Translations under genes and position numbers: made by a program
Shown: piece after piece, positions 11,333-30,303 of the stretch
Layout: each line of letters starts with the position of its first letter
Numbering within the stretch: position 1 is the first letter of the stretch
Origin: Candidatus Syntropharchaeum caldarium
GTDB taxonomy: Archaea; Halobacteriota; Syntropharchaeia; Syntropharchaeales; Syntropharchaeaceae
DNA: 32,000 nucleotides
Reading direction: 5' to 3'
Assembly: GCA_001766815.1 (NCBI GenBank)
Contig: LYOS01000002.1
Location: 354,577-386,576, forward strand
Notes under the pieces: generated by a model
Seen by the model: the letters and a program-made list of their open reading frames with translations, nothing else
What the model was told of the DNA's origin: nothing
The model's database searches: none

Positions 11333-11352
11333 CTGAAGTTTATAGCGACTTG

Positions 11353-14210: not shown

Positions 14211-14212
14211 GG

Positions 14213-15928: not shown

Positions 15929-17634
15929 TCGGCGTATTCTTGTGTGGCTGTGATGGCGAGGTATCAGAGAGGATCGAGCTTAAGTGGCTGGGCGAGGTTG
16001 CAGAGCGTGATCCAGATGTTGGGTATCTCGAGATAGATGAGCACCTCTGCAGTAAGGAGGCGGTCAGGAAGATAAGGTCGATTGTAGAGTCAAAGAACCT
16101 CGATAGGATTGTTATCGCCGGATGCTCTCCCAGAACTCATGAGAAGATCTTTGATGACCTTGCACCGATCGTTGAGTTTGCAAACATACGTGAGCAGGCT
16201 GCATGGGTCCATCCAGAGAAAGAAGAGGCAACACGGGTTGCAGCAGATATTTTACAGTCTGCAATAGTCCGTGCAAAACTGGCAGCAGAGCTTGAACCAG
16301 TCAGAGTTCCGATCGAGCCATCATGTCTCGTGATCGGTGGCGGAGTTTCAGGTATGCAGGCAGCATCAGATCTTTCTGCTCAAGGGTACAGGGTCTATCT
16401 TGTTGAGCGGGATGAGCGGCTTGGTGGACGGGTAAAGCGACTCTCAATGACCTTCCCCACCATTAGTTGTGGTTTTCCATGCAGACACGACTGTCCTGAG
16501 TGTGAACTGACGCCAAAAGAGGAAGAGCTCTATGCATCCGAGTTTGTTGAGATCTTAACATCCACAGAGGTCATGGAAGTAGAGGGCAGGATCGGGGACT
16601 ACCATGTCACGCTCAGGACTCCAGAAGGGGTGCGCGAGATAAAGGTCGGCACCGTCGTTATTGCAACAGGGACAAAAACCTATGATCCATCCAGAATTCC
16701 TGAGTATGGTTATGAGTTTGAGGATGTCATCACATCGATCGAGCTTGAGGATCTTTACATGAAGCACAGGTTCCTTGGTGGAGGTGGGGAGCTTAGAAGG
16801 CCATCTGATGATGCAATACCGAAACGAGTGGATTTCATCCAGTGTGTCGGATCAAGGGGAGAGAAAGGAGGAAATCCGTACTGCTCGATCGTCTGCTGTC
16901 TCTATGGGATCGGGCATGCACGTGCGATAAAAGAGATGCACCCAGCATGCGAGGTTTATCTCCACTTCACAAATATCCAGGCTCCATACAGGGGGTTTGA
17001 GGAGTATTACAAGGAATCCGAGTCACTCGGGGTCAACTTCGTGCGTGGTGAGGTGAAGTTAGTTGAGAAGGGTGAAGAAGGACTTGTTATAACATACGAG
17101 AATGTCGACCTGCAAAAGAGCTTTGAAGAAGCGACCGATCTTGTGGTGCTATCTGTCGGTCAGGAACCATCAGATGGAGCAAAAGAGCTTGCAGAACTCT
17201 TCTACAGAGAACTTGATCCAGATGGCTTCTTCACTGAGGTCAACCAGAAGATTGTCAGAGAGGATGCAACCGGGGTCTTTGTTGCAGGTTGTGCGCTTGG
17301 GCCCCGTAATATCCGCTATGCGGTTGCAGACGGCAAGATTGCAGCAGAGAATGCGCTGGCGCTCCTCAAAAAGGGTGAATTCGAGATGGAAGGGATAATG
17401 CCGATCGTTGATGATACAAAGTGCATCGGGTGTAATATCTGCGGAAATCTCTGCTACTTCGGGGCGATTGGTGTGACGGAGGAGATAGCAGAGGTTGTTG
17501 AGGGTAAGTGCAGAGGATGTGGGATCTGTGCTGCAGCCTGCCCTGAGAAGGCGATCACGCTCACACAGTTTGATGACGAAGAGATTACGGCTCAGATTGA
17601 GGTATTTGCCAGAGCAGGGGAGGTGTCTGGATGA
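15925..17634 (+). CDS. HdrA-like flavoprotein, the second copy of the variant type.
   Basis: It has the same architecture as 14213..15928 (LCGCDGE, CGFPCRHDCPEC, CSIVCCLY, C-terminal ferredoxin). An ATGA overlap links it to the upstream gene. Confidence 0.85.
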   Translation: MIGVFLCGCDGEVSERIELKWLGEVAERDPDVGYLEIDEHLCSKEAVRKIRSIVESKNLDRIVIAGCSPRTHEKIFDDLAPIVEFANIREQAAWVHPEKEEATRVAADILQSAIVRAKLAAELEPVRVPIEPSCLVIGGGVSGMQAASDLSAQGYRVYLVERDERLGGRVKRLSMTFPTISCGFPCRHDCPECELTPKEEELYASEFVEILTSTEVMEVEGRIGDYHVTLRTPEGVREIKVGTVVIATGTKTYDPSRIPEYGYEFEDVITSIELEDLYMKHRFLGGGGELRRPSDDAIPKRVDFIQCVGSRGEKGGNPYCSIVCCLYGIGHARAIKEMHPACEVYLHFTNIQAPYRGFEEYYKESESLGVNFVRGEVKLVEKGEEGLVITYENVDLQKSFEEATDLVVLSVGQEPSDGAKELAELFYRELDPDGFFTEVNQKIVREDATGVFVAGCALGPRNIRYAVADGKIAAENALALLKKGEFEMEGIMPIVDDTKCIGCNICGNLCYFGAIGVTEEIAEVVEGKCRGCGICAAACPEKAITLTQFDDEEITAQIEVFARAGEVSG

Positions 17635-18359
17635 AGATTCTTGTATTCTGCTGTGACTGGTGTTCCTACCCAGGTGCGGATCTTGCAGGCATCCTGAGGC
17701 TTGAATATCCACCAGAAGTCAGGATCATAAAGGTGATGTGCTCAGGCAGGGTGGATCCGATGCTCGTGCTCGATGCGTTGAGGCAGGGAATTGATGGCGT
17801 GATGGTGACAGGTTGCCATCCTGGTGAATGCCACTACGTCCACGGGAATATGGAGGCTGAGCGAAGGATTGAGCTTCTAAGATCAATATTTGAGAGATCT
17901 GGGATAAACCCCAGGCGTGTGAGGATTGAGTGGATCTCGGCATCAGAGGGTGAAAAGTTTGCAGAGGTTACACGTGCATTTAAACAGGAGATCGATGAGA
18001 TTGGACCCATCAATCAAGGTGAGATCGATGCAGCAGAAATCATCCATGATGTATTCTCATCAGAGCGGGCAAGACTTGTCCTTGGCGCTTCAAGGCGTGC
18101 GATCGAACTTGAGGGCGTTGATCCTCTCTGGTATAAAGGGGTTCTTGAGCGTACGGTGCGAGAGGAGGTTTTGCGTGAGCGGATACTCAGAGAACTGCGA
18201 AAGAGTGGTGCCCTGAGCGCACATGAACTTGCAGAACGGATCGGTGAACCAGCAAAGGAGATCTTCTGGAACTTGATCGCGATGAAACGAAGGCAGATCA
18301 TTCTTGATATGGGGATAGTAGATGATTCACTCAAGTTTGCCATACAGGAGGGTGTGTGA
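17631..18359 (+). CDS. mvhD: MvhD-like [2Fe-2S] protein with a C-terminal extension of about 110 aa (possible winged helix).
   Basis: The N-terminal part, FCCDWCSY...VMCSGRVD...VTGCHPGECHY, matches MvhD. Residues from about 128 to 242 are extra and include ILRELRKSGALSAHELAERIGEPAKEIFWNLIAMKRR. An ATGA overlap links it upstream. Confidence 0.85.
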   Translation: MKILVFCCDWCSYPGADLAGILRLEYPPEVRIIKVMCSGRVDPMLVLDALRQGIDGVMVTGCHPGECHYVHGNMEAERRIELLRSIFERSGINPRRVRIEWISASEGEKFAEVTRAFKQEIDEIGPINQGEIDAAEIIHDVFSSERARLVLGASRRAIELEGVDPLWYKGVLERTVREEVLRERILRELRKSGALSAHELAERIGEPAKEIFWNLIAMKRRQIILDMGIVDDSLKFAIQEGV

Positions 18360-20317
18360 TGAGAATCGGTGTCTATGTCTGCCACTGCGGGATCAATATC
18401 GGTGCAACCGTGGATGTTAAAAAGGTTGCTGAGTTCGCATCCCATCTCAAAGACGTTGTCATCTCCCGTGAGTACAGTTACATGTGCTCAGATCCAGGTC
18501 AGGAGCTTATAAAGAAGGATATACGGGAATTAGGACTTGACCGGGTCGTTGTTGCATCCTGTTCGCCCAGAATGCATGAGCCAACATTCAGGACCGCGGT
18601 CGCAGAGGCAGGCTTGAATCCTTATCTTTTTGAGATGGCAAACATCAGGGAGCACTGCTCATGGGTGCACGATGATCGTGAACGTGCAACCGAGAAGGCG
18701 ATGCACCTTGTTGCAGGCTCTGTCTATAAGTCAAAGCTTCTTGAACCACTCGAGCCAATGCAGGTTGGAATCACGAAGAAAGCGCTTGTCATGGGTGCAG
18801 GGATCGCTGGAATTCAGACAGCCCTTGATATCGCAGATTCAGGCTTCGAGGTCTATCTTGTTGAGCGATCGCCTTCCGTGGGTGGAAAGATGGCGCAGCT
18901 TGATAAGACGTTCCCAACGCTGGACTGCTCTGCGTGTATCCTGACACCAAAAATGGTCGATGCAGGGAGGCACCCAAATATCGAGCTCATGACATACTCA
19001 GAAGTAATTGATATCGATGGTTATGTCGGAAACTTCAAGGTCAAGATCAAGAAGAAGCCGAGATTCATCGATATCGAGAAGTGCACAGGCTGTGGTGAGT
19101 GTGCATCCCGCTGCCCGGTGGATGTTCCAAATGAGTTTGATGAAGGGATCGGAATCCGAAGTGCAATCTATATTCCATTCCCACAGGCGGTCCCCTTGAA
19201 GTACACGATCGATCGTGATAGCTGTATCCGCTGTGGGACATGCAAGAATGTCTGCAAACGTGATGCAATCGACTATGATCAGACCGAGGAGATCGTAGAA
19301 CTTGATGTAGGGGCAATCGTTGCTGCAACAGGCTATGACCTGATGGATGTGAGTTCCAGGGAGGAGTATGGCTACGGCAGGTTTGATAATGTCATAACAG
19401 GCCTGGAGTTTGAGCGGTTATGCAATGCATCAGGTCCAACCGGTGGAAAGATTCTCACAAAGGATGGTAGAGAACCCAAAGATGTTATCTTCATCCAGTG
19501 TGTCGGATCCAGGGAGATTGGGGGCAATGAATACTGTTCAAGGTTCTGCTGCATGTACACGGCAAAGCACGCACATCTTGTCGAGGACAGGATTGAAAGC
19601 GGCAAGGCGAAGGTTTTATTCACGGATGCACGGGCTTATGGCAAGGGCTTCGAAGAGTTCTATGTGCGGGTGATGGAGGAGGGTGTCGACTACTACAGGC
19701 GTGATCATGACAAACCAGTCAGTGTCACCGAAAGGGAGGATGGCAAGCTTATTGTTACAGCAACCGCGCTTGATGGCTCGCCAATTGAGCTTGAAGGGGA
19801 TATGGTCGTGCTCGCAACAGCAGCCACGGCATGTGAGGATGCGTTTGAGGTATCAAGGCTTCTAAATATCTCACGAACAGGCGATGGCTTCTTCATGGAG
19901 GCACATCCAAAATTAAGGCCGATTGATACACCATCTGATGGAATCTTCCTTGCAGGCTGTTCACAGGGACCAAAGGATATTCCTGACACGGTTGCTCAAG
20001 CTTCTGGTGCAGCTTCACAGGTTCTGAACCTGCTCGCCCAGGATTCAACGACCGGTTCACCGAGCGTATCAGAGGTAAACCAGGATATCTGCATCGGGTG
20101 TGCCACGTGCTTTGAGGTCTGTCCATACGGTGCGATCGAGATGGAGCGGCTTGAGGTTGGGTGGCGTGCAAAGACGAACGAGGTCGTATGTAAGGGCTGT
20201 GGTATCTGCGCCGGCGAATGTCCTGCACTTGCGATCAATGTGAAGCACTTTACGGATGAACAGATAATAAATAAGATTGAAGGTGTTCTTGCTGATTTGA
20301 ACGAGGTGGTAACATGA
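18359..20317 (+). CDS. hdrA: Heterodisulfide reductase subunit A (canonical architecture), a paralog of 12249..14210.
   Basis: It has the same motif set as the first hdrA, and the 5' ends are near-identical at the DNA level. The start overlaps the mvhD stop (TGATG). An alternative GTG start lies at 18356. Confidence 0.9.
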   Translation: MRIGVYVCHCGINIGATVDVKKVAEFASHLKDVVISREYSYMCSDPGQELIKKDIRELGLDRVVVASCSPRMHEPTFRTAVAEAGLNPYLFEMANIREHCSWVHDDRERATEKAMHLVAGSVYKSKLLEPLEPMQVGITKKALVMGAGIAGIQTALDIADSGFEVYLVERSPSVGGKMAQLDKTFPTLDCSACILTPKMVDAGRHPNIELMTYSEVIDIDGYVGNFKVKIKKKPRFIDIEKCTGCGECASRCPVDVPNEFDEGIGIRSAIYIPFPQAVPLKYTIDRDSCIRCGTCKNVCKRDAIDYDQTEEIVELDVGAIVAATGYDLMDVSSREEYGYGRFDNVITGLEFERLCNASGPTGGKILTKDGREPKDVIFIQCVGSREIGGNEYCSRFCCMYTAKHAHLVEDRIESGKAKVLFTDARAYGKGFEEFYVRVMEEGVDYYRRDHDKPVSVTEREDGKLIVTATALDGSPIELEGDMVVLATAATACEDAFEVSRLLNISRTGDGFFMEAHPKLRPIDTPSDGIFLAGCSQGPKDIPDTVAQASGAASQVLNLLAQDSTTGSPSVSEVNQDICIGCATCFEVCPYGAIEMERLEVGWRAKTNEVVCKGCGICAGECPALAINVKHFTDEQIINKIEGVLADLNEVVT

Positions 20318-20715
20318 GTTTTGAACCGTCAATTGTTGCCTTCTGCTGTAACTGGTGCTCTTATGCGGCAGCAGACCTGGCAGGAGTGAGTCGTATGAAA
20401 TATCCACCGAATGTGAGGATCATCCATGTTCCATGCTCTGGAAAGGTTGATCAGATCTATATCCTGAAAGCCCTTGAGATGGGGGCAGATGGGGTGCTTG
20501 TTACAGGGTGTATGGAAGGACAGTGCCATTATCTCACAGGAAACTACTACACCCGTGACCGTGTCGAGCGCCTGAAACGCGATCTTGAGAAGGTGGGGCT
20601 GGGCGGCAGGGTGGATATGTTCATGATGTCTGCTGCGATGGGGCGTGAATTTGCAGATACTGCAACGAGATTTACAGAGAAGATAAGAGAACTGGGACCG
20701 AACCCGTATAAGTAG
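20314..20715 (+). CDS. mvhD: MvhD, the standard-length 133-aa form.
   Basis: It shows FCCNWCSY...VPCSGKVD...VTGCMEGQCHY. An ATGA overlap links it to the hdrA stop. It ends in TAG. Confidence 0.9.
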   Translation: MSFEPSIVAFCCNWCSYAAADLAGVSRMKYPPNVRIIHVPCSGKVDQIYILKALEMGADGVLVTGCMEGQCHYLTGNYYTRDRVERLKRDLEKVGLGGRVDMFMMSAAMGREFADTATRFTEKIRELGPNPYK

Positions 20716-20748: not shown

Positions 20749-21804
20749 ATGAGATCGGTGATAAGGGTTGAGAGAGTAGATATCGGAAGGTTGAAGGTGA
20801 TTTTTGGGTATAATCCAGATCACATCGCAAAGATAAAGACTGTCAGAGGCTATAGATGGCATCCTGATGGGAAATACTGGAGTGTGCCTTACTCTGAATT
20901 TGAAAGGCTCATATCAGTTTTTGGTTGTGAAAAGCTTGATATCGATCCTGTTGTATGGCTCAGCAAGCTTGAAAAGGAGCTTGCTGCAAGAAGATACAGT
21001 TCAAAGACGAAAAAAGCCTATCTTCATTACAATGAAGACTTTTTAAAGTTTTCTCGCAAAAACCCCACCGAAATATCCAATGATAATGTAAAAGATTATC
21101 TATTTCATCTGGTGGAGAAAAAAGAAGTCTCTACATCCACTTTGAATACAGCGATCAACGCATTGAAGTTTTACTATGGTGAGGTTTTGAAGCGAAGGTT
21201 TGCTTACGAGATAAAGAGGCCAAAGAAGGATAAGAAGCTTCCTGTTGTTCTGAGTCAGGAGGAGGTTTCAAGGATTATATCTTCCGTTACAAATCTCAAA
21301 CACAAACTGATTTTGATGCTTGTCTATTCTGCTGGTTTGAGGGTTAGCGAGGTTGTAACGTTGAAGCCGGAGGATATCGATGTGGAAAGGGAGCTTATCC
21401 ATGTTAAGGGAGCCAAGGGCAGAAAGGACAGATACACGATGCTTTCGGATGTGGCGATGGGGGCTCTGGAGCTGTATCTAAAGGCGTATCGACCCGAGAA
21501 ATGGCTCTTTCCCGGACAAAAATCCAGTTCCCACATCACAACGAGAACGGTGCAGAGGATATTTGAAGACGCCATCGAGAAGGCGGGGATCAAGAAGGAT
21601 GTTAGTGTTCATTCGTTAAGGCACAGCTTCGCAACACATTTACTGGAGGGCGGGACAGACCTGCGGTATATCCAGGAGCTGCTTGGGCATAAAAGTTCGA
21701 AGACGACAGAAATATATACGCATGTGAGTAAGAAAGACCTGAGTAACATAAAAAGTCCATTAGACTCTATCCTGACTCAAGAGGTAGTGGATGAAGATCG
21801 GTGA
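20749..21804 (+). CDS. Tyrosine recombinase/integrase, Xer-like, with an extra N-terminal domain of about 70 aa.
   Basis: The full catalytic set is present: R in AGLRVSE, K in VKGAKGRKDR, HSLRHSF, LGHKS and EIYTHV. The R-to-H spacing is 90 residues, which is Xer-like and not IntI-like. Confidence 0.9.
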   Translation: MRSVIRVERVDIGRLKVIFGYNPDHIAKIKTVRGYRWHPDGKYWSVPYSEFERLISVFGCEKLDIDPVVWLSKLEKELAARRYSSKTKKAYLHYNEDFLKFSRKNPTEISNDNVKDYLFHLVEKKEVSTSTLNTAINALKFYYGEVLKRRFAYEIKRPKKDKKLPVVLSQEEVSRIISSVTNLKHKLILMLVYSAGLRVSEVVTLKPEDIDVERELIHVKGAKGRKDRYTMLSDVAMGALELYLKAYRPEKWLFPGQKSSSHITTRTVQRIFEDAIEKAGIKKDVSVHSLRHSFATHLLEGGTDLRYIQELLGHKSSKTTEIYTHVSKKDLSNIKSPLDSILTQEVVDEDR

Positions 21805-21820: not shown

Positions 21821-21890
21821 GGTATATACGAAGTTTACTTCCGATATACCGCTAAATTTGAAGGATATACGACATTGATGTCGTATATAA
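21821..21890. other. Two adjacent core-type recombination-site candidates, 17 bp downstream of the integrase stop.
   Basis: Site 1 (21821-21850) reads GGTATATACGA-AGTTTACT-TCCGATATACC (11-8-11). Site 2 (21863-21890) reads GGATATACGAC-ATTGAT-GTCGTATATAA (11-6-11). All four half-sites fit GG(T/A)TATACGA. Confidence 0.6.
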
Positions 21891-21900
21891 ATGAGCAGAT

Positions 21901-21957
21901 GCGCAATTGAGGTTTTGCCCTTCGGGTTACTCACTTCGTTCGCAATTCTCAATCGCC
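21901..21957. repeat. Structured repeat A (hairpin carrying a degenerate copy of the shared core).
   Basis: GCGCAATTGAGG (21901-21912) pairs with TTCTCAATCGCC (21946-21957). The loop contains TTCGGGTTACTCAC. The right arm recurs inverted at 22080-22091 (GGCGATTGAGAA). Confidence 0.5.
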
Positions 21958-22036
21958 TTAATCCCTCACTTCATTTAACAGCAAAAAATAAGACAAGTGA
22001 TTAAAAAGAATGTGAAATTAAAACTTTACATAACGA

Positions 22037-22312
22037 AAAGGTTAAATGAAATTCTCTTATCAGAGAACTACGCTCGGGAGGCGATTGAGAACAAAACCCC
22101 AACTTCTCCGCTCCTCGCTTCGCTGCGGTGCTCGACCACGTTGCACTCTCACTCCGCTACGCTCCGTTCGGGGCGCATTACACCCGCTAACCGATTCGCT
22201 CCTTGCAGTCACTCATCCAAATTTTGCTTCGCAAAACTTCGGTTAGCTTTTTCGTTAGGCGTAATTGGGGGCAAAAAGATTCAAAGGGAACTCCCCGGTT
22301 AAGTTAATATAT
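22037..22312. repeat. ORF-less module consisting of structured repeat B, bounded by two GTTAA(A/G)T boundary motifs.
   Basis: It contains the boundaries AAAAGGTTAAATGAAAT (GTTAAAT at 22041-22047) and CCCCGGTTAAGTTAAT (GTTAAGT at 22298-22304). Other elements are the core TTCGGGGCGCATTACACCCG (22167-22186), a 9-bp inverted repeat GCTAACCGA (22187-22195) / TCGGTTAGC (22239-22247), the hairpin TTTTGC-TTC-GCAAAA, and GTTAGGC at 22254-22260. Confidence 0.55.
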
Positions 22313-22346
22313 GAGATTTAAAAACAAAAAATAGAAGGTGAAATAA

Positions 22347-22544
22347 ATGGCAAGAAAGGTGTGTGTATTGTGTGGGAAACAACACGGAATAATGCCATCT
22401 TCACCATTGGGGAAATGGCATCAATGCACAAACTGCGGACGGATATACTGCGATAGCTGTGGTGCAAAACTTAGAAGAGCAGGAACACTATCTCGTGAAC
22501 GCATATGCCCACATTGCGGAAATGAAACCACGTTGATTCCCTAA
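22347..22544 (+). CDS. Small double zinc-ribbon protein (65 aa).
   Basis: It has four CxxC pairs: CVLCG, CTNCG, CDSCG and CPHCG. The RBS AAGGTGA and a TATA-like TTAATATAT lie upstream. Confidence 0.7.
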   Translation: MARKVCVLCGKQHGIMPSSPLGKWHQCTNCGRIYCDSCGAKLRRAGTLSRERICPHCGNETTLIP

Positions 22545-22716
22545 TACGTCTTTGCCCCCCAACTCTTCGCAACCTTTTGGGTTGCTCGTCCTCGCTGTCG
22601 CTCGGATCACTTAACACGGTGTATGCGGTTCGAGTTATGCCCTCCCCCAAATGCCTCGCTACGCTCGGCACTTCGCATACACCAAAGCCGTTATATGACA
22701 TTCTGCCCCCCTCGCC
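22545..22716. repeat. Structured repeat C, a long imperfect palindrome.
   Basis: The core CTCGGATCACTTAACACGG (22601-22619) includes ACTTAAC. A perfect 10-bp stem, GGTGTATGCG (22618-22627) / CGCATACACC (22674-22683), is present. An inverted core copy, GCCGTTATATGAC, begins at 22688. Confidence 0.6.
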
Positions 22717-22762
22717 GTATCAGAAAATAAAAATATAGGAATAATTGTATGGAGGTTAAAAG

Positions 22763-23272
22763 ATGGCAACAATAAAAGATATACTCAAATCAAAGAAAAA
22801 GCCTAAAGAAATTGTTGAACTTTTGGCTGAAAAATTTAAAAGTGATGATAAAGCGATTGACGAACTTATACAATGCTTTAGAGATGGAACTACTGCTGAG
22901 AAAGGTAACTGCATGGAAGCGATAGAATATATTACCAAAGAAAGTCCAGAATTTGCCGAAGATTGCCTTGATTTCGTTATCGAGCATATCAATGATAAAA
23001 CTCCGAGGGTAAAATGGGAAGCTTGCAGAATAATTGGCAATGTTGCCCAAGAATTTCCAGATAAAGTTAAAAATGCTGTCCCAAAGCTCTTAGAAAACAC
23101 AAAAGATAAAGAAACAGTTGTAAGATAGAGTGCCGCTTTTGCTTTGACCGAGATTGCAAAAAGTAACCCAGCAATGCAAAAAGAACTTGTTCCTGAATTT
23201 AAGAAAGTACTAGAAAGAGAAGACAACAAGGGAGTGAAAAATATTTACATGAAATATCTTAAAGGTGCATGA
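22763..23272 (+). pseudogene. HEAT-repeat protein interrupted by a single in-frame TAG at 23126-23128.
   Basis: The reading frame continues through the TAG inside a HEAT motif (ETVVR-TAG-SAAFALTEIAK). It ends with an ATGA overlap onto the next gene's ATG (23269). Confidence 0.55.
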
Positions 23273-23757
23273 CTATGATAGATGATGTTAGGGATATAAT
23301 TGAAAGAGGAATTCTTTCTTTGCATGATGCTCTTCCTGAAATAAGGGAACTTGCATCCAGTGATGATTGGAGAAAACGGGAAGATGCAGCTACTGCACTG
23401 GTAGAGATCACCAAAAAGAGGAAAGATGAAGTTGTAAGTGAGATGATAATATGGGCAGAGGAAAAAGACCCCAATATTCGCAGAGTCTCAAGTGAAGGAT
23501 TGAGGGGTGTAGCGAGAAGAAATCCAGAGAAGATTTTACCAGTAATTGAAAAACTGAAAACTGACAATAGCCTTTATGTCAGAAAGTCCGTTGCTGCTCT
23601 TCTTAGGGCGATAAGCAAGAAAAATCCTGAATTTGTGGCGGATTTATGCAGAAAATGGGCAAAACTGAAAAATAAAAATACTAACTGGATAATAACACAG
23701 GGTATAAAGAAGTTATCAAAAGAGCAGCAGGAAGAATTAAAATCTTTATTAGATTAG
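23269..23757 (+). CDS. HEAT-like repeat protein (DNA alkylation repair enzyme-like).
   Basis: It shows repeated helical HEAT-type motifs (NIRRVSSEGLRGVA, LYVRKSVAALLRAI) and a C-terminal WAKLKNKNTNW. The family assignment is from pattern memory only. Confidence 0.6.
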   Translation: MTMIDDVRDIIERGILSLHDALPEIRELASSDDWRKREDAATALVEITKKRKDEVVSEMIIWAEEKDPNIRRVSSEGLRGVARRNPEKILPVIEKLKTDNSLYVRKSVAALLRAISKKNPEFVADLCRKWAKLKNKNTNWIITQGIKKLSKEQQEELKSLLD

Positions 23758-23766
23758 GTGAATAAA

Positions 23767-24654
23767 ATGGTTAATGAAATCAAAGTTAAATCAATACTAA
23801 ACAAACACAAAAAGAGGGATGATTGGTTTTTGGACGATTATTCAGTAAATCCTTATTCGGGTTGTTCTTTCAACTGTATTTACTGCTACATAAGAGGGAG
23901 TAAATATGGAGAAAATATGGCAAAGACTTTATCGGCAAAAATAAACGCCCCGGAACTTCTGGAAAAACAGCTTTCAAGAAGAGCAAAGAGAGGAGAATAT
24001 GGAATTATTGCTTTGTCATCTTCAACGGAGCCCTACATGCCAATTGAAGAAAAACTGAAGTTGACAAGAAAATTGCTTGAGATAATTCTGAAGTATAGAT
24101 TTCCTGTTGAAATTGCTACTAAATCAAAACTTGTTTTGAGGGATTTGGATTTATTAAAAGAGATCGCTAAGAATGCAATTTTGCCAGATGATTTGGAACC
24201 TAAACTGAAACATGGGGCAATTATTTCCTTTTCCATCTCAACTCTGGACGAGAAATTGGCAAAAATTCTTGAACCGGGAGCTCCTAAACCTATAGAGAGA
24301 TTGGATGCGATGAAAAGATGTAAAGAGAGGGGATTTTTTACTGGAATATGTTTTATTCCCGTTTTGCCATTTTTATCAGATTCTGAGGAACAAGTTGAGG
24401 AAACGATAAAAACTGTGAAGGAATATGGAGCAGATTTCATTTTTGTTGGTGGCTTAACTTTATTTGGTAAGGGGCCAGCGGATTGTAAGACTCTTTATTA
24501 TAAATTCTTGGAAAAATATCATCCTGAGCTTGTGCCAAAATATAAGAGTTTATACAGAATCTTTTTTGCACCATCAAAAGAATATCAAAAAGAGCTTGAA
24601 GAAAAATCAAGGAGGTTGTGTGAGAGATATGGAATTAAAAATGGGATTATCTAA
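23767..24654 (+). CDS. Radical SAM protein (SplB / DNA-repair-photolyase-like, COG1533-type).
   Basis: It has the CxxxCxxC motif NPYSGCSFNCIYCY near the N-terminus. The ATG at 23767 is preceded by AGGTG. An alternative GTG start lies at 23758. Confidence 0.75.
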   Translation: MVNEIKVKSILNKHKKRDDWFLDDYSVNPYSGCSFNCIYCYIRGSKYGENMAKTLSAKINAPELLEKQLSRRAKRGEYGIIALSSSTEPYMPIEEKLKLTRKLLEIILKYRFPVEIATKSKLVLRDLDLLKEIAKNAILPDDLEPKLKHGAIISFSISTLDEKLAKILEPGAPKPIERLDAMKRCKERGFFTGICFIPVLPFLSDSEEQVEETIKTVKEYGADFIFVGGLTLFGKGPADCKTLYYKFLEKYHPELVPKYKSLYRIFFAPSKEYQKELEEKSRRLCERYGIKNGII

Positions 24655-24803
24655 TGACGGTTTTGGGGCGGAACGCTTCGTCGCTTCGCTCCTCGCCCTC
24701 ACTTCGTTCGGGTCATATAACACGGGCTATACGGCTCACTCCGTTCGCCCAAATTTCGCCTTACGGCGAAACTTCACATATCCCCAAAACGTTAAGTGAA
24801 ATA
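24655..24803. repeat. Structured repeat D.
   Basis: It contains TTTTGGGG (24661-24668) paired with CCCCAAAA (24782-24789), and the core TTCGGGTCATATAACACGGG (24707-24726). It also has the hairpin TTCGCC-TTAC-GGCGAA and the right end CTTCACATATCCCCAAAACGTTAAGTGAAAT (GTTAAGT at 24791-24797). Confidence 0.6.
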
Positions 24804-24864
24804 CCCAAGCCCGCCTTGGGAAAGGATTTAAAAGTTGAAGCAAAACAATAAAACTGGGTACGAT

Positions 24865-25173
24865 ATGATAAAAGATATATCAGTTGATGAAATAAAAAGA
24901 ACTCTTAAAAAATATAAAAGTGAGCTAAAAGAGAAATTCGGAGTTAAAGAGATTGGTGTGTTTGGCTCCTATGTAAGAAGAGAACAGAAAAAAGGCAGTG
25001 ATATTGACATCCTCGTTGAATTTCATCCAGATACTGAGATGGACTTAATAAAATTTGTTGAACTCGAAGAATATCTATCTAAACTATTAGGAATAAAAGT
25101 TGATCTGGTAATGAAATCTGCTCTTAAACCACGGATAGGAAAGCGGATATTGAAAGAGGTAGTTTATATATGA
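24865..25173 (+). CDS. mntA: MNT-type nucleotidyltransferase (antitoxin partner of HepT).
   Basis: It has the motif GVFGSYVRREQKKGSDIDILV and is 102 aa. I prefer the ATG at 24865 over the TTG at 24835. Confidence 0.85.
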   Translation: MIKDISVDEIKRTLKKYKSELKEKFGVKEIGVFGSYVRREQKKGSDIDILVEFHPDTEMDLIKFVELEEYLSKLLGIKVDLVMKSALKPRIGKRILKEVVYI

Positions 25174-25537
25174 AAAGAGAAGCCGGCGACTTTATTGAAG
25201 ATATTATCAATGATCATATCAATGATCAATGCGATGAATAAAGCGTTAAAGTTTGTTGAGGGGATGTCTTATGAAGAGTTTGCCAAAGATGACAAAACCG
25301 TTTTTGCTGTTATTAGAGCTATTGAAATAATCGGAGAGGCTGTAAAAAAATATACCCGAAGATATAAGGAAAGAGTATCCCGAAATTCCCTGGAAGGGGA
25401 TGGCTGGGATGAGAGACAAAGTTATTCACGGGTATTTTGGAGTAGATATCAAAGTTGTGTGGGATACTGTTACAAAGAGAATTCCGGGACTTAAACCACT
25501 GGTTGAGAAGATGTTAGAAGAGCTGGAGGAGAAATAG
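25170..25537 (+). pseudogene. hepT: HepT (DUF86) RNase toxin gene, disrupted twice.
   Basis: An ATGA overlap links it to the MNT stop. An insertion of about 19 nt containing ATCAATGATCA twice (25206-25228) breaks the frame after MKREAGDFIEDII. A 7-A run (25344-25350) shifts the frame again just before IPEDIRKEYPEIPWKGMAGMRDKVIHGYF. The Rx4HxY motif is readable only in the shifted frame. Confidence 0.75.
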
Positions 25538-25540
25538 ATC

Positions 25541-25649
25541 TGACGTTAGGCAGACTCGGGCACTCTGCAGTGCTTCGCACTTGCCTTTCGGGTCATATAA
25601 CAAGCGGAATATCTGGCTTCAGATATCCACCAACCCTTAACTGAAATGC
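25541..25649. repeat. Structured repeat E.
   Basis: It contains GTTAGGC (25545-25551) and the core TTCGGGTCATATAACAAG (25587-25604). A 9-6-8 inverted site GGAATATCT-GGCTTC-AGATATCC lies at 25606-25628. The right end is CCACCAACCCTTAACTGAAATGC. Confidence 0.6.
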
Positions 25650-25716
25650 TGTGCCTGAGAAAGACAAAAAGGATGGGCAAGGAAACTTTATAGCTGGAAA
25701 GGGGTTTAACATAACT

Positions 25717-26412
25717 ATGATAAAGATCATTACCATTTGTTTACCACTACCTTATAAGTTAGGTACCGTAAATTGCTACCTCATAGAAACCGACATCGGC
25801 TATATTCTGATCGACACAGGGTGCTCAAATAAGCGCACCGAGCTTGAAAAAGAACTTGAAAGAGCGGGGTGTAAACCCGGCAATCTCAAACTCATCGTTT
25901 TAACCCATGGAGATTTTGACCACACAGGTAATGCAGCTCATCTCCGTGAAAAGTTCGGTGCAAGGATAGCGATGCATCATGATGATTCGGGAATGAGCGA
26001 ACGTGGAGACATGTTCTGGAACAGAAGAAAAGGCAATATTCTCCTTGGAATGATAGCTCGTATCCTGTTCAGATTTGGCAAAAAGGAAAGATTCAAACCA
26101 GATTTATATATTGATGAGGGATACGATCTCTCTGAATACGGACTCGATGCAAAAGTTCTTCATATTCCAGGCCACTCAAAAGGTTCAATAGGAATCCTGA
26201 CAGCCAATGGCGACCTGTTTTGCGGAGATTTGCTTGAAAATAAAGACAAACCAGTTCTCAGCTCTATTATGGACGACTTAACAACGGCAAATGCCAGTGT
26301 TGAGAAACTGAAAAGATTGGAAATAAAAACTGTTTATCTAGGGCATGGAAAGCCCTTCCCGATGGAACTGTTTATGAAACATCACCGAAAAAGGGATAAA
26401 GAGGAAAATTAA
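25717..26412 (+). CDS. MBL-fold metallo-hydrolase.
   Basis: It has VLTHGDFDHTGN and HIPGHSKGS motifs. The ATG at 25717 gives a typical N-terminus, MIKIITICLPLPY. Confidence 0.8.
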   Translation: MIKIITICLPLPYKLGTVNCYLIETDIGYILIDTGCSNKRTELEKELERAGCKPGNLKLIVLTHGDFDHTGNAAHLREKFGARIAMHHDDSGMSERGDMFWNRRKGNILLGMIARILFRFGKKERFKPDLYIDEGYDLSEYGLDAKVLHIPGHSKGSIGILTANGDLFCGDLLENKDKPVLSSIMDDLTTANASVEKLKRLEIKTVYLGHGKPFPMELFMKHHRKRDKEEN

Positions 26413-27162
26413 ATGTCTCAATTAAAACAAAATCCGCTTATTGGTGTCGAAACTGCAAATTCCAGCTGGAATTGGCTCTACAGAGTCGCAGGAGTGGCTG
26501 CCCTGATCTCATTAGTGATTATCCCGATCCAGGTCATCATCTTCATCGTCTCGCCGCCACCAACCACTGCAATCGGTTGGTTCACCCTGTTTCAAAACAA
26601 TAAGCTCCTGGGGCTCCTGGCTTTTGAACTCTTGATTATTGTCAGCAATGCTCTTGCGATTCCGATATATCTCGCATTCTACGCCGCCCTCAGACGAGTC
26701 AGTGAATCTTTCATGGCCATCGCCACGGTCATCGGCTTGGTGGGGATTGTGGCTTCCTTCGTAGCGAGACCCGCCTTCGAAATGCTTTACCTCAGCGACC
26801 AATACGCGGCTGCCACAACAGATTCGCAATCCATGTTCCTGGCAGCAGGGGAGGTTATGATTGCCATGTCCAAGGGCACTGCTTCTCATTTGAGTTACAT
26901 CTTCGCGGCCTTAGCCCCTCTGATAATCTCGGTTGTCATGCTGCGGAGCAATATCTTCAGCAAGGCAACTGCTTATATTGGAATTCTGGCAAATGTGATT
27001 GCATTGGGCTTTTACGTGCCAGAGATAGGCATCATTTTTGGAATCATTTCTGTCTGCCCGTTTTTGATGATATGGGAGATCCTGATTGCCCGAAGGTTCT
27101 TCCAGTTAGGGCGCGGTATCTCTAAAGAGGAGGCAAATCGGATTGGAGGTATGTCTCGATGA
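26413..27162 (+). CDS. Integral membrane protein (DUF4386-like; low-confidence family call).
   Basis: It is 249 aa with about 6-7 hydrophobic segments. Its start abuts the MBL stop. Confidence 0.6.
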   Translation: MSQLKQNPLIGVETANSSWNWLYRVAGVAALISLVIIPIQVIIFIVSPPPTTAIGWFTLFQNNKLLGLLAFELLIIVSNALAIPIYLAFYAALRRVSESFMAIATVIGLVGIVASFVARPAFEMLYLSDQYAAATTDSQSMFLAAGEVMIAMSKGTASHLSYIFAALAPLIISVVMLRSNIFSKATAYIGILANVIALGFYVPEIGIIFGIISVCPFLMIWEILIARRFFQLGRGISKEEANRIGGMSR

Positions 27163-27641
27163 AAGCATTGGTAATTTACGATTCGGTTTTTGGCAATACA
27201 GAGCAAATAGCCCAAGTGATTGGTAACGCGATGGGTTCCCAAGCAGAGGTCAACATACTTCGTGTGGGTAATGTGAAGCCAGAACATTTGACAGGTTTGG
27301 ACGTGCTCATCGTCGGCTCTCCTACCCGGGGATTCAAACCTACAAAAGCGATTACAAATTTTCTGAAAAGAATTCCAAAAAATGGTCTAAAAGGTGTCAA
27401 GGTAGCTGCATTTGATACCAGGTTTACAATGAGTGCTATAGAAGAATCACGCGTGTTACCATTTTTTGTAAGATTATTTGGCTATGCCGCCAAGCCGATC
27501 TCAGACAGACTCAAGAAAAAAGGGGGAGAATTGATCATCCCTCCTGAAGGGTTCTTTGTAGAAGGGGTAGAAGGTCCACTGAAAGAAGGCGAACTTGAAC
27601 GAGCTGCGGATTGGGCAAAGCAAATCATAGCAACACAATAA
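27159..27641 (+). CDS. Flavodoxin.
   Basis: It has the N-terminal FMN-phosphate loop MKALVIYDSVFGNTEQIA and VGSPTRGF. An ATGA overlap links it to the upstream gene. Confidence 0.8.
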   Translation: MKALVIYDSVFGNTEQIAQVIGNAMGSQAEVNILRVGNVKPEHLTGLDVLIVGSPTRGFKPTKAITNFLKRIPKNGLKGVKVAAFDTRFTMSAIEESRVLPFFVRLFGYAAKPISDRLKKKGGELIIPPEGFFVEGVEGPLKEGELERAADWAKQIIATQ

Positions 27642-27657
27642 ATCGCCCAACAACCGC

Positions 27658-28029
27658 ATGGAGCTGACACTCGAAGATGTTAAAGAAGTCGACCTTGAAA
27701 AGTTAGCGGATTGTTATGCAATGTTGATAGGGTTGCCAAATCATTGGGGTGGGCCTTCTCGAACTATTAGAAAGTTTATTGATAAGCTTGACAAACTTGA
27801 CTTGAAGGCGAAGTGGTTCGCTGTTTTCGATACCTATCTTGGGGGAGATTTCGAGAAGGCTGTGAAGAAAATGGAGAAGAGAATAGGCGAAAAGATTCCT
27901 AGCCTGAAGCTAATAACTTCTGGCTTATCCATAAAGGTTGAGGGAATGAAGAGTCCTGTCATAGAAGAAGAGTATCTCAGGTGCAAGGATTTCGGAAAGA
28001 AAATAGCGAATCAACTTCTGAGGTGTTAA
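27658..28029 (+). CDS. Flavodoxin-like protein lacking the N-terminal FMN-phosphate loop; a truncated paralog.
   Basis: It retains the motif LIGLPNHWGGPSRTIRKFIDKL and the C-terminal flavodoxin pattern, but has no SxxGNT loop. Confidence 0.55.
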   Translation: MELTLEDVKEVDLEKLADCYAMLIGLPNHWGGPSRTIRKFIDKLDKLDLKAKWFAVFDTYLGGDFEKAVKKMEKRIGEKIPSLKLITSGLSIKVEGMKSPVIEEEYLRCKDFGKKIANQLLRC

Positions 28030-28030
28030 A

Positions 28031-28435
28031 ATGGGAATAAAGATATATCTATATGCTCTTGGGATTTGGCTCATATTTGTTGCTGCGGGTATCTTGAACG
28101 GAGTATTTAGGGAGTCATTTATCACACCTAAGATAGGAGAACATACAGGTCACATTATCAGCACAGTCATTCTTATCTGTGTTATCTTAGCGGTGACGTA
28201 TCTATTTATCAGCAATTTGAAAATCAACTACACTAAGACAGACCTGCTTTTGATTGGTATGTTTTGGACTATATTAACCATTTTGTTTGAATTTGGCTTC
28301 GGTCACTATGTTATAGGTCATTCATGGAGTAAGTTATTTGCAGATTACAACATCCTTAAAGGGAGAGTATGGAGTCTTGTATTATTAACTACGTTCATCG
28401 CACCATTGTTAATTGGCTACATTCTGAAGAGGTAG
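28031..28435 (+). CDS. Small membrane protein (134 aa, about 4 TM segments).
   Basis: The ORF is hydrophobic and starts 1 nt after the previous stop. Confidence 0.55.
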   Translation: MGIKIYLYALGIWLIFVAAGILNGVFRESFITPKIGEHTGHIISTVILICVILAVTYLFISNLKINYTKTDLLLIGMFWTILTILFEFGFGHYVIGHSWSKLFADYNILKGRVWSLVLLTTFIAPLLIGYILKR

Positions 28436-28589
28436 GTTTGGAGAATATGAAAGTTAAAAGAGGCGGGTGTTCAATATCGCCTAACAGAACATAAAAGGTA
28501 TACGCTGTGTCTGTGGGCTAACCTAATTTCTGCCTCACAAAAACTGCTTAATATCATGGTCTTTCCAGAGATAAATCATAAAGAAAGTT

Positions 28590-29948
28590 TCACCCCCTCC
28601 TGAACGCTTCCATCGCTTCTCTAAATCTTACAACAGACTCAGGATCTGATGCAAAGTGGAGATGCATGTACGAAGCAAGTGTTCCGCCCTGGATGATCCC
28701 ATCATGTTTGCCATCGATCCCATTTCCCCGTAGCATCCTGTATGCAAACCGCAAATCTTCCGGCGGATCATGAACCGCTGTATAGTGAAACTCATGACCC
28801 AGTACACGCTTTCCTTTTGCAAATAATACTGAGTCGTTTATCGTCTCTGCAACCGTGAACTTGACGTGCCTTCCATTCATACCCGACTCAATCGGCAGGA
28901 AACCAACCCCTCTCGATCCAGCGAGTTTTTTTCCGAGATAAATTAAACCACCACACTCTGCAATTGTCGGGATTCCATCATCAAGCACTCTCTGCAGGTC
29001 TTTAAGCATACTCTCATTTCTTGAAAGCTCTTTTGCGAATACCTCAGGGTAGCCCCCTCCAATATAAAGCCCATCAAGTTGGGGAAGTCTTTTGTCACTC
29101 AGTGGGCTGAAAAATACAGGTTCACAGCCGTTTATGCGCAGAAGGTCGAGCGAATCCTCGTAATAGAAGTTGAAGGCATCGTCGTATGCAACCCCCACCC
29201 TGAAGATACCATCACCAATGCCCTCTTGCCTTAAAAAAACCACAGGGGCTTCCGTCTCTATTTCTGGAGCACTCTCTGCGATCTCAAGGATTCTGTCAAG
29301 ATCTACGTACGTCTCGATAACAGAGCGAATCCCCTCAAGCTCAATTCCTGACTCAACCATCGGAATAAGTCCAAGATGTCTGTCACAGATCTCCATCTCT
29401 TCGGATCTGGGGATTGCACCAATCACACTGACCCCTGCGAGATCCTCGACCGCGGTAACCACCTTCTTTCTGTGCTCCTCGCCGGCGATATTGTTCAGGA
29501 TTACACCTTTTATCATAACCTCACGATCAAAGGATTTAAACCCGTGAACGATCGCTGCGGCGCTCTTTGTAATACTCTTTGCATTCACGATCAGGATTAC
29601 GGGGGCTTTCAGGATCTTTGCAATATGCGCTGTGCTCCCCTCTTCCTGATGTATCGAGATCCCCTCAAATAACCCTCTTACACCTTCGATGATCGATAAA
29701 TCCTTGCTGGTGCTGTTTCGAAAGAAGATCTCTTTTATTGTCGCTGGTGTCATCAGCACACTGTCAATATTTCGAGATGAATGCCCTGTTGCCTTGCGGT
29801 GGTATCCGGGATCGATATAATCAGGTCCGACCTTATAACCCTGGACATCAAAACCACGCCCTGTCAGGGCTGACATCACGCCTGTTGTGATTGTGGTCTT
29901 CCCGACGCCGCTACCCGATCCTGCAAATATGATTCTTGGAAATTTCAT
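28590..29948 (-). CDS. cbiA: Cobyrinic acid / Ni-sirohydrochlorin a,c-diamide synthase family (CbiA/CfbB).
   Basis: It has the P-loop AGSGSGVGKTTIT, KVGPDYIDPGYH, and a C-terminal glutamine amidotransferase domain (ECGGLIYL, HEFHY). Sequence alone cannot separate CbiA from the F430 enzyme CfbB. Confidence 0.8.
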   Translation of the reverse strand: MKFPRIIFAGSGSGVGKTTITTGVMSALTGRGFDVQGYKVGPDYIDPGYHRKATGHSSRNIDSVLMTPATIKEIFFRNSTSKDLSIIEGVRGLFEGISIHQEEGSTAHIAKILKAPVILIVNAKSITKSAAAIVHGFKSFDREVMIKGVILNNIAGEEHRKKVVTAVEDLAGVSVIGAIPRSEEMEICDRHLGLIPMVESGIELEGIRSVIETYVDLDRILEIAESAPEIETEAPVVFLRQEGIGDGIFRVGVAYDDAFNFYYEDSLDLLRINGCEPVFFSPLSDKRLPQLDGLYIGGGYPEVFAKELSRNESMLKDLQRVLDDGIPTIAECGGLIYLGKKLAGSRGVGFLPIESGMNGRHVKFTVAETINDSVLFAKGKRVLGHEFHYTAVHDPPEDLRFAYRMLRGNGIDGKHDGIIQGGTLASYMHLHFASDPESVVRFREAMEAFRRG

Positions 29949-29955
29949 CTGCTTT

Positions 29956-30303
29956 TCAGCCTATATAGGTCAGATCCTCCTTCTTTTCTGCCCCTCCGTC
30001 CTCTGCATCTTTCTGTGCCACGCCAGGCACATTTATGGTACCGAACTTCCGCTCATAGTTCGCAACATTCTCTTTGAACGCCTGTAAGAAGACCTTTGCA
30101 TGATTCGGGCTGAGTTTTATCCTTGTGAGTACCTCGAAAGTTTCCTTCTCAGGTATAAAGACTCCGAAGTCGATCGTAAAGTCATGGAGGCTGTTTGAGA
30201 TCCTTGCAACATTTGAATAGATCCCTTCAAGCTTATCTTCCGATATATTGAACTTAATCGAACTGATATCTGATTTACCCTTTAGTAGTTTATTTCCCAT
30301 CAA
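29956..30303 (-). CDS. DUF3467-like small protein.
   Basis: It shows the pattern DFTIDFG...RIKLSPNHAKVFLQAFKENVANYERKFG. A 4-nt overlap links it to gatD. Confidence 0.6.
   Translation of the reverse strand: MMGNKLLKGKSDISSIKFNISEDKLEGIYSNVARISNSLHDFTIDFGVFIPEKETFEVLTRIKLSPNHAKVFLQAFKENVANYERKFGTINVPGVAQKDAEDGGAEKKEDLTYIG

Follow-up and report, generated by a model that had tools for sequence, protein, structure and literature searches.

Integrons are at present defined and sought by the insertion specific to their integrase, IntI, and by models of canonical attC recombination sites. In archaea, Ghaly et al. 2022 (PMC9668308) described integrons whose integrases have the IntI domain and whose attCs are canonical; attI lies directly downstream of intI, and only six IntIs were reported, compared with 539 attCs. 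Relatives of IntI that lack the insertion are already known at the protein level, as conservation of the insertion is incomplete in the 'integron-like' subgroup of simple tyrosine recombinases of Smyshlyaev et al. 2021 (PMC8138268). Here we analyse a 32,000-nucleotide (nt) stretch of Candidatus Syntropharchaeum caldarium (hereafter the window; assembly GCA_001766815.1, contig LYOS01000002.1, positions 354,577 to 386,576 of the forward strand), in which a tyrosine recombinase gene is followed by co-oriented genes and structured, attC-like repeats. An initial annotation had proposed an integron-like (or IMEX-like) array, operated by a recombinase without the IntI insertion, and the integron-like proposal is supported: the insertion is absent, the sites are tied to the recombinase family and the cassette ends obey a complementarity rule. 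The locus is very probably a chromosomal gene-cassette platform that works in the manner of an integron and belongs to a separate lineage.

The recombinase comprises an N-terminal domain, a SAM-like core-binding domain and a catalytic domain (Pfam Phage_int_SAM_4 and Phage_integrase), and its catalytic residues R198, K223, H288, R291, H314 and Y323 are conserved among its homologues (alignment A1). It passes the NCBIfam equivalog model for archaeal XerA (XerA_Arch; 253.3 bits, cut-off 220) and matches the integron-integrase model TIGR02249 (integrase_gron) in two pieces with 237.2 bits, which is under the cut-off of 265. When compared with the PDB, both by sequence and by fold, VchIntIA (2a3v) is the best match and archaeal XerA (4a8e, 5hxy) is near-equal to it, with bacterial XerD far below both. 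The IntI-specific insertion is missing, with residues 234–260 (27 amino acids (aa)) standing opposite residues 171–239 (69 aa) of VchIntIA. The spacing between R198 and H288 is 90 residues, as the annotation had counted; it is 89–91 in 113 of the 120 closest homologues (those with both motifs found) and 87–96 in the loci that we fetched.

All members of the recombinase family carry about 70 extra N-terminal residues. A profile of this region (aa 1 to ~70; 20749–20955 of the window) matches the HARP domain of SMARCAL1 (4o66) at E = 5e-4, and its predicted fold (pLDDT 92.5) is nearest to the N-terminal domain of archaeal XPB and to HARP, with template-modelling scores of ~0.52–0.57 and E = 0.02–0.03. 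We take the archaeal XPB domain to be a damage-recognition domain (DRD), and both it and HARP are presumably structure-specific DNA-binding domains. On the basis of the profile and the modelled fold, the recombinase N terminus is probably a HARP/XPB-DRD-like domain. Domains of this type are widespread (3868 cluster representatives at E <= 1e-3), and 3–4 tandem copies occur in other proteins of 300–790 aa (within P0121–P0270), the architecture of which is unrelated to recombinases.

A double palindrome lies directly 3′ of the recombinase stop codon and is conserved in 8 homologous loci (alignment A8), with palindrome spacers that vary from 0 to 6 nt. In the relatives that we read, this attI-like site consists of two palindromes with CCAAAaTGGAA between them, followed by GTTnnnn; the box reads GTTAGGC, GTTATAT or GTTGTCC, and because of this the GCAGATG found at the equivalent place in the window is probably a mutated box. 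Cassette content varies at fixed platforms. Upstream of the recombinase gene, loci L082 and L087/L088 have an identical gene order, the last gene of which is dapA; in L082 this platform continues with GTTAGGC, a cassette and an attC, and in L087/L088 there is no attC match and attI ends in GTTGTCCGAAATT. The same GTTGTCCGAAATT lies directly 3′ of the last attC in L085, and close variants of it follow the last attC in L001 (GTTGTCCGACAG) and L089 (GTAGTCCGAAATT), which is exactly what insertion at GTT predicts. Cassettes therefore appear to enter between the G and the TT of the attI that adjoins the integrase gene, with this bond as the putative point of cleavage.

We built a covariance model from 12 aligned repeats of the window and related loci, comprising an R stem, a 12-pair L stem and a 5-pair inner hairpin. 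Run with filters off, it finds exactly four sites in the 32 kb (B to E; Table 1), all on the + strand and all inside the array; the next best match has E = 0.036. The near-identical core reported for D and E is indeed present (TTCGGGTCATATAACA at 24707 and 25587), and a related copy occurs at 22601 (family D3). The GTTRRRY boundaries that were said to end the repeats are found at the places named for them (GTTAAAT at 22041, GTTAAGT at 22298 and GTTAAGT at 24791), but site E ends in CTTAACT rather than GTT; the true right boundary of C is GTTATAT at 22690, which had been overlooked. The proposed match of the R boxes to the integron consensus is borne out, as the boxes of C and D fit RYYYAAC/GTTRRRY; the R'' box of site B reads TTAC, not TAAC. 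As for the inverted arms, those of C (GGTGTATGCG/CGCATACACC) and E (GGAATATCTG/CAGATATCC) fold as described, and the stem of D turned out to be imperfect.

Across loci, the repeats have an R''-L''...L'-R' architecture with RYYYAAC/GTTRRRY boxes and conserved pairing (alignments A2 and A7). Among 137 distinct sites, compensatory changes occur at 8 of the 9 pairs of the L box (93.8% of cells paired) and at all 5 pairs of the inner hairpin, counts that lean toward the structure because alignment A7 was fitted to the model. When the partner is slid by one to three columns, pairing falls to 21–52% of cells, and a hand-made alignment of 12 sequences gives the same covariation pattern. The L-box consensus is G-NN-TAT-NN-G / C-NN-ATA-NN-C, with no extrahelical bases. 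The geometry around it is constant: one unpaired base (A) separates TAAC from the L stem, and about five (AAAAC or GGAAC) separate the L stem from C-GTT. Sites are 60–147 nt long (median 98). Folded in their linear genomic context, the repeats reach modest z-scores of -1.4 to -3.5. The reconstructed circular junction of cassette 2 of L085 folds with z = -5.8 and forms the outer stem, R stem, L stem and inner hairpin as predicted, and that of cassette D of the window forms the R stem and the outer stem. The structure is clear only from covariation and from the reconstructed circular junctions, not from linear folds. An Rfam scan of the window returned no family that matches the repeats, which are therefore not a known RNA family. 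In several attC-like sites of different organisms, a conserved G+C-rich module with small hairpins of its own (GGCACTCTGCAG-TGCTTCGCA-CTTGCC..) sits between the outer stem and R'' (window 25548–25592; L089 ~17905–17955; L001 ~9455–9500).

The association of sites with recombinase holds well beyond this genome. Our scan of a genome collection returned, among the matches listed, mostly bacterial homologues of 37–52% identity rather than the lineage of the window; closer loci were obtained by look-ups of the exact proteins, which yielded ten loci encoding close homologues. The closest named relative comes from a Candidatus Syntropharchaeales metagenome-assembled genome (MAG; 84% identity). Recombinases of 60–87% identity occur in Syntropharchaeales, ANME-1, Thermoplasmatota, Methanotrichaceae and the bacterium Thermodesulforhabdus norvegica, and those of 37–64% identity include, among the matches listed, Thermodesulfobacterium, Spirochaetota, Ignavibacteriota, Bacteroidota, Patescibacteria and DPANN archaea. 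When the surroundings of 92 loci with homologous recombinases (1.16 Mb in all) are searched, the covariance model finds 28 sites in 17 distinct loci. All 28 keep to one of two placements, downstream of the gene on the same strand as it or upstream of it on the other strand (17 of 17 loci), a geometry with a chance, by simple arithmetic, of 0.5^17, or about 8e-6. In the window and its close relatives the recombinase gene points into the array, as had been annotated, unlike L047, L038, L070 and L172 (Patescibacteria, Peregrinibacteria and some archaeal loci), in which the array lies upstream of and divergent from the recombinase gene, as in the classical integron layout.

The pattern of the repeat alone retrieved at least 120 metagenome stretches, and the 80 loci that we fetched contain 140 sites by the covariance model. 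Sites are co-oriented in 34 of the 35 multi-site loci, at a median spacing of 1261 bp and with up to 10 sites in one 9.8-kb contig; the longest open reading frame (ORF) is on the attC strand in 65 of 68 cassettes. Cassettes measure 0.3–4 kb and are without replication, phage or mobility genes, and only one repeat match falls in a viral contig. Those of the relatives encode, among others, AccI, AlwI, Bpu10I and Eco57I-type restriction-modification, HicAB, ParE and SnoaL proteins, and the sampled metagenome cassettes encode PIN, MazF, ParE, MNT/HepT, HicB, DUF4258/DUF2283, DNA methylase and GmrSD, a content typical of chromosomal integrons. Contigs often stop within 1–3 kb of the recombinase gene; L081–L084, L092 and many of the loci retrieved by the repeat pattern end inside or just past the platform, evidently because the repeats break short-read assemblies, and such arrays are therefore likely to be under-represented in MAGs.

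A further pattern concerns the cassette ends. In an integron, a cassette that has been excised and re-inserted at G|TT bears at its 5′ end a TTRRRY complementary to its own R'', and the R' adjacent to an attC is part of the next cassette; the cassettes described here show this arrangement too. In 18 cassettes, the 5′ end is complementary to the left arm of the cassette's own attC with a mean score of 12.1, whereas non-own pairs score 6.7 +/- 1.5; this mean is not reached in any of 20000 permutations, and the physically adjacent R' scores at background. The result was replicated in 58 metagenome cassettes, in which all four variable core bases match in 27 of 58 (5.4% of non-own pairs) and none of 5000 permutations reaches the total end-complementarity score. 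Pairing is 10/10 between the 5′ boundary GTTAGGCGAC and the R'' arm GTCGCCTAAC of the L081 cassette and, likewise, between GTTATATGAC and GTCATATAAC in L085 cassette 1; it is complete in L001 cassette 1 (GTTAGGCGT + TCGGGGGCAAAGAA with ACGCCTAAC + TTCTTTGCCCCCGA) and 18/18 in the outer stem of L047 cassette 1. Complementarity extends to 18 nt or more (L047, L001 and L017). In the window, cassette D has GTCATATAAC as the reverse complement of its 5′ boundary GTTATATGAC (10/10; own-end score 10). In cassette C, R'' and the 5′ boundary GTTAAGT are reverse complements of each other (7/7), with an overall end score of 7, which equals background, so that the rule is met for the 7-nt core only. A 5′ end that is complementary to its own rather than to the adjacent repeat is the footprint of excision as a circle and insertion at GTT.

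We propose that the recombinase binds the double-palindrome attI just past its own stop codon and would also bind the R and L boxes of the ~100-nt attC-like sites at the cassette ends. Strand exchange would take place at the conserved GTT, so that cassettes would depart as circles and insert again at attI or a further attC. Within such a circle, the 5′ end of the cassette (GTTA-NNN-GAAAT...) would pair with its own attC's left arm (...NNN-TAAC), and the L box and inner hairpin would complete the folded, presumably single-stranded, site; the predicted junctions are ...ATATCCCCAAAACG joined to TTATATGACATTCTGCC for the circle of cassette D and ...ACACCAAAGCCG joined to TTAAGTTAATATATG for that of cassette C. 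The constant asymmetric internal loop (~1 nt versus 5 nt) could set polarity, and a HARP/XPB-DRD-like domain, a type of domain with affinity for branched DNA, may stand in place of the IntI insertion. L stems without extrahelical bases fit the absence of the insertion that reads such bases.

Several observations count against an integron-like platform. The products of recombination (a circular junction, or the same cassette at two positions) were not observed directly, and an all-against-all comparison of 70 cassettes gave only one homologous pair in different arrays (75% identical), too few for an argument from mobility. A recombinase is visible in only 6 of the 80 attC-seeded metagenome loci, most of which are too short. 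Covariation reports pairing potential, and a cruciform or a role at the RNA level would give an equal signal; the lean of the pair counts noted above belongs here too. The scores for the HARP-like assignment, by profile and by fold, are weak. In the window itself the attI box is not GTT, and both cassette E (score 6) and, elsewhere, cassette 2 of L089 break the own-end rule. The outer left arm of cassette C (TCTTTGCCCCCCAA, 22545–22560) pairs with 22262–22280, upstream of the assumed boundary; this segment follows GTTAGGCGTAAT at 22254 and not the GTTAAGT (22298) that matches R'' of the cassette. The 42 nt between these GTT boxes (within 22254–22297) could be a remnant mini-cassette or the result of a secondary-site event.

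If the locus were the canonical integron of an archaeon (compare Ghaly et al. 2022) that had simply diverged, it would combine a true IntI with standard attCs. The R boxes of C and D and the rank of VchIntIA among the PDB matches agree with this, as does the attI directly downstream of intI in published archaeal integrons (PMC9668308). The lack of the insertion in the homologues measured and in all loci and the TIGR02249 score below cut-off do not, and the sites differ in L-box sequence, in having no extrahelical bases and in an R stem that is far longer. As a stand-in for the attC model of IntegronFinder we used a proxy built from six published archaeal attCs that are recombined by IntI1 (Data S9, PMC9668308). 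The proxy finds no match in the window (best E = 0.44, outside the sites) or in the 1.16 Mb of related loci, and thus detects none of the repeats as canonical attCs. We consider this explanation very unlikely. Three 'IntIs with partial IntI-specific domain' that were left out by Ghaly et al. (PMC9668308) could belong to the family of the recombinase. Ordinary miniature inverted-repeat transposable elements (MITEs), repetitive extragenic palindromic (REP)-like repeats, terminators or RNA elements unrelated to the recombinase would likewise be intergenic, G+C-rich, structured and 3′ of ORFs, and some long metagenome loci do hold a lone site with no recombinase within several kilobases. Yet such elements leave the end-complementarity rule without explanation and would not be expected to take an unvarying place and orientation with respect to the recombinase gene in 17 of 17 loci, to be co-oriented in 34 of 35 multi-site arrays, or to be confined to the array within a 32-kb window; no Rfam family matches the repeats either. 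This explanation is very improbable.

Closer to the integron-like reading is an array of integrative mobile elements exploiting Xer (IMEXs), in which elements with dif-like sites are stacked at the chromosomal dif by the housekeeping XerA. The pass of the archaeal XerA model (253 versus 220) speaks for it, the half-sites (GGATATAC) recall archaeal dif arms, and folded single-strand hairpins can be substrates of Xer enzymes, as CTX-phi shows. However, the recombinase gene directly abuts the site at each locus, its product has an extra N-terminal domain, and archaeal recombinases share 60–70% identity with those of bacteria such as Thermodesulforhabdus and Thermodesulfobacterium, which is not expected of a vertically inherited housekeeping Xer; these bacteria are expected to have XerC/D of their own. 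The palindrome spacers of 0–6 nt are not those of a fixed 11-6-11 dif, and the units are 0.3–4-kb gene cassettes without replication, phage or mobility genes, with a single match in viral contigs. An IMEX array is accordingly very unlikely, and an integron-like platform fits better, because the recombinase gene is linked to its site and travels with it across domains and the units are small cassettes devoid of replication or phage functions. Small transposons with terminal inverted repeats (GTTA...GAAAT / ATTTC...TAAC) that insert serially at a hairpin target, their enzyme encoded elsewhere, would account for the end complementarity, which on one strand is formally a terminal inverted repeat of up to ~20 nt. 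As a rule, however, the cassettes contain no transposase, no target-site duplications are seen, and the L box and inner hairpin of each unit are distinct, so that they are not a duplicated target. Moreover, the attI palindrome is directly adjoined by the first unit, and 3′ of the last attC in L085 lies the R' with which the empty attI of L087 ends (L001 and L089 have close variants of this R'), as reciprocal site-specific exchange at GTT predicts. We give serial transposition very little credence.

The array of the window, which we read as an integron-like platform, is probably old, largely frozen and partly decayed, with an intact recombinase gene, judging from its mutated attI box, the decayed ORF-less first units, TTAC in site B, CTT and the lost loop in site E, and two pseudogenes. 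The initial annotation had anticipated neither this decay nor the absence of canonical attCs by the proxy model. The ORF-less remnants hold, besides site B, a decayed attC that the covariance model meets only as a weak collapsed match (22023–22052, E = 0.37). In cassette D, the reading of the first HEAT ORF continues for 47 codons past its single TAG, which is either the nonsense mutation of a pseudogene or a read-through or recoded stop; the HepT pseudogene of cassette E includes a 12-nt tandem duplication (TATCAATGATCA) at 25205. Beyond site E, the covariance model, with filters off, finds no attC-like site in 25.65–28.6 kb, and an orphan R''-like ATCGCCTAAC at 28476–28485 has neither L box nor partner. 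The five genes in this block (25651–28435; G+C 0.36–0.50) could be fused old cassettes or host DNA, and their membership of the array is uncertain.

The recombinase gene opens a lower-G+C block, which is bounded by the last MvhD-like gene (stop codon at 20715) on one side and by a convergent CobB/CobQ-like gene (28590–29948) on the other, and all genes to 28435 share its strand. The platform is directly 3′ of an operon (11206–20715) that comprises a gene for a MetF-like methylenetetrahydrofolate reductase and then four HdrA-like genes, the last two of which are each followed by MvhD/FlpD genes. An arrangement of this kind is typical of archaea that oxidise alkanes or methane. Both this cluster and the GatD gene on the minus strand (Table 1) agree with an archaeal host. 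A tRNA scan of the window found none, and the array is therefore not a tRNA-targeting island. The one sister-strain contig found for this organism (L092) is 96% identical to the window over the upstream 6.2 kb and has the platform at the same chromosomal spot. At its positions 6241–6421 (window 20715 onward), only the last ~25 codons of the recombinase are left (ending in SLDSILSREVVDEDR and the stop codon), followed by an attI-like stretch; the contig ends at the platform.

Table 1. Features of the cassette platform and its surroundings in the window (position 1 is the first nucleotide of the 32,000)
Feature	Position	Strand	Details
Tyrosine recombinase gene	20749–21804	+	351 aa; intact; points into array
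attI-like palindrome 1	21821–21850	+	GGTATATACGAAGT-TT-ACTTCCGATATACC; folds as hairpin
attI-like palindrome 2	21863–21890	+	GGATATACGACAT-TG-ATGTCGTATATAA; folds; resembles L''/L' pair without variable loop
attI crossover box position	21895–21901	+	GCAGATG (alignment A8, columns 81–87)
ORF-less cassette remnants	21902–22297	+	sequence reading and covariance-model match B
Decayed attC	21971–21979; 22041	+	R'' TCATTTAAC pairs 9/9 with R' GTTAAATGA
attC-like site B	22170–22265	+	59.6 bits, E = 1.3e-15; L GCTAACCGA/TCGGTTAGC; R' GTTAGGC at 22254, then 42 nt to GTTAAGT at 22298
Cassette C	22298–22690	+	65-aa zinc-ribbon ORF (22347–22544, Pfam) and site C
attC-like site C	22604–22701	+	82.3 bits
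Site C, R'' and L''	22607–22615; 22618–22627	+	TCACTTAAC; GGTGTATGCG
Site C, L' and R'	22674–22683; 22690	+	CGCATACACC; GTTATAT
Cassette D	22690–24791	+	two HEAT-type ORFs, radical-SAM ORF and site D (Pfam)
HEAT-repeat ORF, cassette D	22763–23272	+	in-frame TAG at 23126–23128
HEAT/AlkD-like ORF, cassette D	23269–23757	+	
Radical-SAM ORF, cassette D	23758–24654	+	
attC-like site D	24710–24802	+	82.0 bits
Site D, R'' and R'	24713–24721; 24791	+	TCATATAAC; GTTAAGT
Cassette E	24791–25647	+	MNT nucleotidyltransferase, HepT pseudogene and minimal site E
MNT nucleotidyltransferase gene, cassette E	24835–25173	+	Pfam NTP_transf_2; looks intact
HepT pseudogene, cassette E	25170–25537	+	Pfam HepT; three frames, at least 2 frameshifts
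attC-like site E	25590–25647	+	33.7 bits, E = 9e-8; variable loop deleted
Site E, R'' and L''	25593–25601; 25606–25615	+	L'' GGAATATCTG
Site E, L' and R'	25620–25628; 25636	+	CAGATATCC; degenerate R' CTTAACT
Five co-oriented genes	25651–28435	+	MBL-fold hydrolase, DUF4386, flavodoxin, two of unknown function (Pfam)
GatD gene	30300–31553	-	

With moderate confidence we would go further and regard these platforms as a sister lineage of integrons that spans Archaea and Bacteria (Syntropharchaeales/ANME-type archaea, Thermoplasmatota, Methanotrichaceae, DPANN, Thermodesulfobacteriota, Bacteroidota, Spirochaetota and Patescibacteria) and whose integrase never gained the IntI insertion, representing either an ancestral state (an intermediate between Xer and IntI) or an independent second invention. 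This lineage may use its HARP/XPB-DRD-like domain to handle folded attCs that have no extrahelical bases. We found no description of these sites, arrays or N-terminal domain in full-text literature, a search that did not cover subscription-only work. If the interpretation is true, surveys undercount cassette platforms, especially in archaea, and IntI-based detection misses a large reservoir of mobile defence and toxin–antitoxin cassettes exchanged between domains, for which near-identical archaeal and bacterial platforms would be a route of transfer that also carries restriction genes. The origin of integrons from Xer-like enzymes could then be tested on a living intermediate or parallel, and the need for the IntI insertion in folded-DNA recombination on an insertion-less enzyme with another accessory domain. 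Cultured carriers include Thermodesulforhabdus norvegica, Flavobacterium aciduliphilum DSM 25663, Seonamhaeicola aphaedonensis CECT 8487 and Algibacter onchidii.

Compared with known systems, the platform is like an integron in that a tyrosine recombinase gene adjoins an attI, directly downstream of the gene as in archaeal integrons (PMC9668308), and serves co-oriented small cassettes that end in imperfect-palindrome R''-L''...L'-R' sites. The R box (..TAAC / GTTA..), the boundary at GTT, the complementarity of the cassette 5′ end to its own R'' and a content rich in toxin–antitoxin and restriction or defence genes are also shared. Unlike integrons, the system has no IntI insertion, a protein that scores below the TIGR02249 cut-off and an extra N-terminal HARP/XPB-like domain. 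Its L box (G-NN-TAT-NN-G) has no extrahelical bases, its central loop is asymmetric (~1 nt versus 5 nt), its R''/R' complementarity runs to 10–30 nt, often across a G+C-rich inserted hairpin, and its attI consists of two L-box-like palindromes. The insertion-less members of the 'integron-like' subgroup (PMC8138268) were described without sites, cassettes or function.

XerA/dif systems (4a8e, 5hxy) resemble the platform in the enzyme, the catalytic and core-binding domains of which are collinear with XerA without large indels and pass the XerA_Arch model, and in half-sites that are A/T-rich and of the GATATA type. They differ in that XerA has two domains (~280 aa) and a single 28-bp dif (11-6-11), whereas the platform recombinase has a further N-terminal domain of ~70 aa, its gene is fused to a site that is followed by cassettes, its spacers are variable (0–6 nt) and its family crosses domains at 60–70% identity. 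Finally, the platform is like IMEXs, such as CTX-phi, in using an Xer-type enzyme and a hairpin-forming site and in stacking acquired DNA at one chromosomal site; IMEXs, however, are phages, plasmids and islands that borrow the XerC/D of the host and have no recombinase of their own at the site, in contrast to the dedicated, linked recombinase and bare cassettes of the platform described here.

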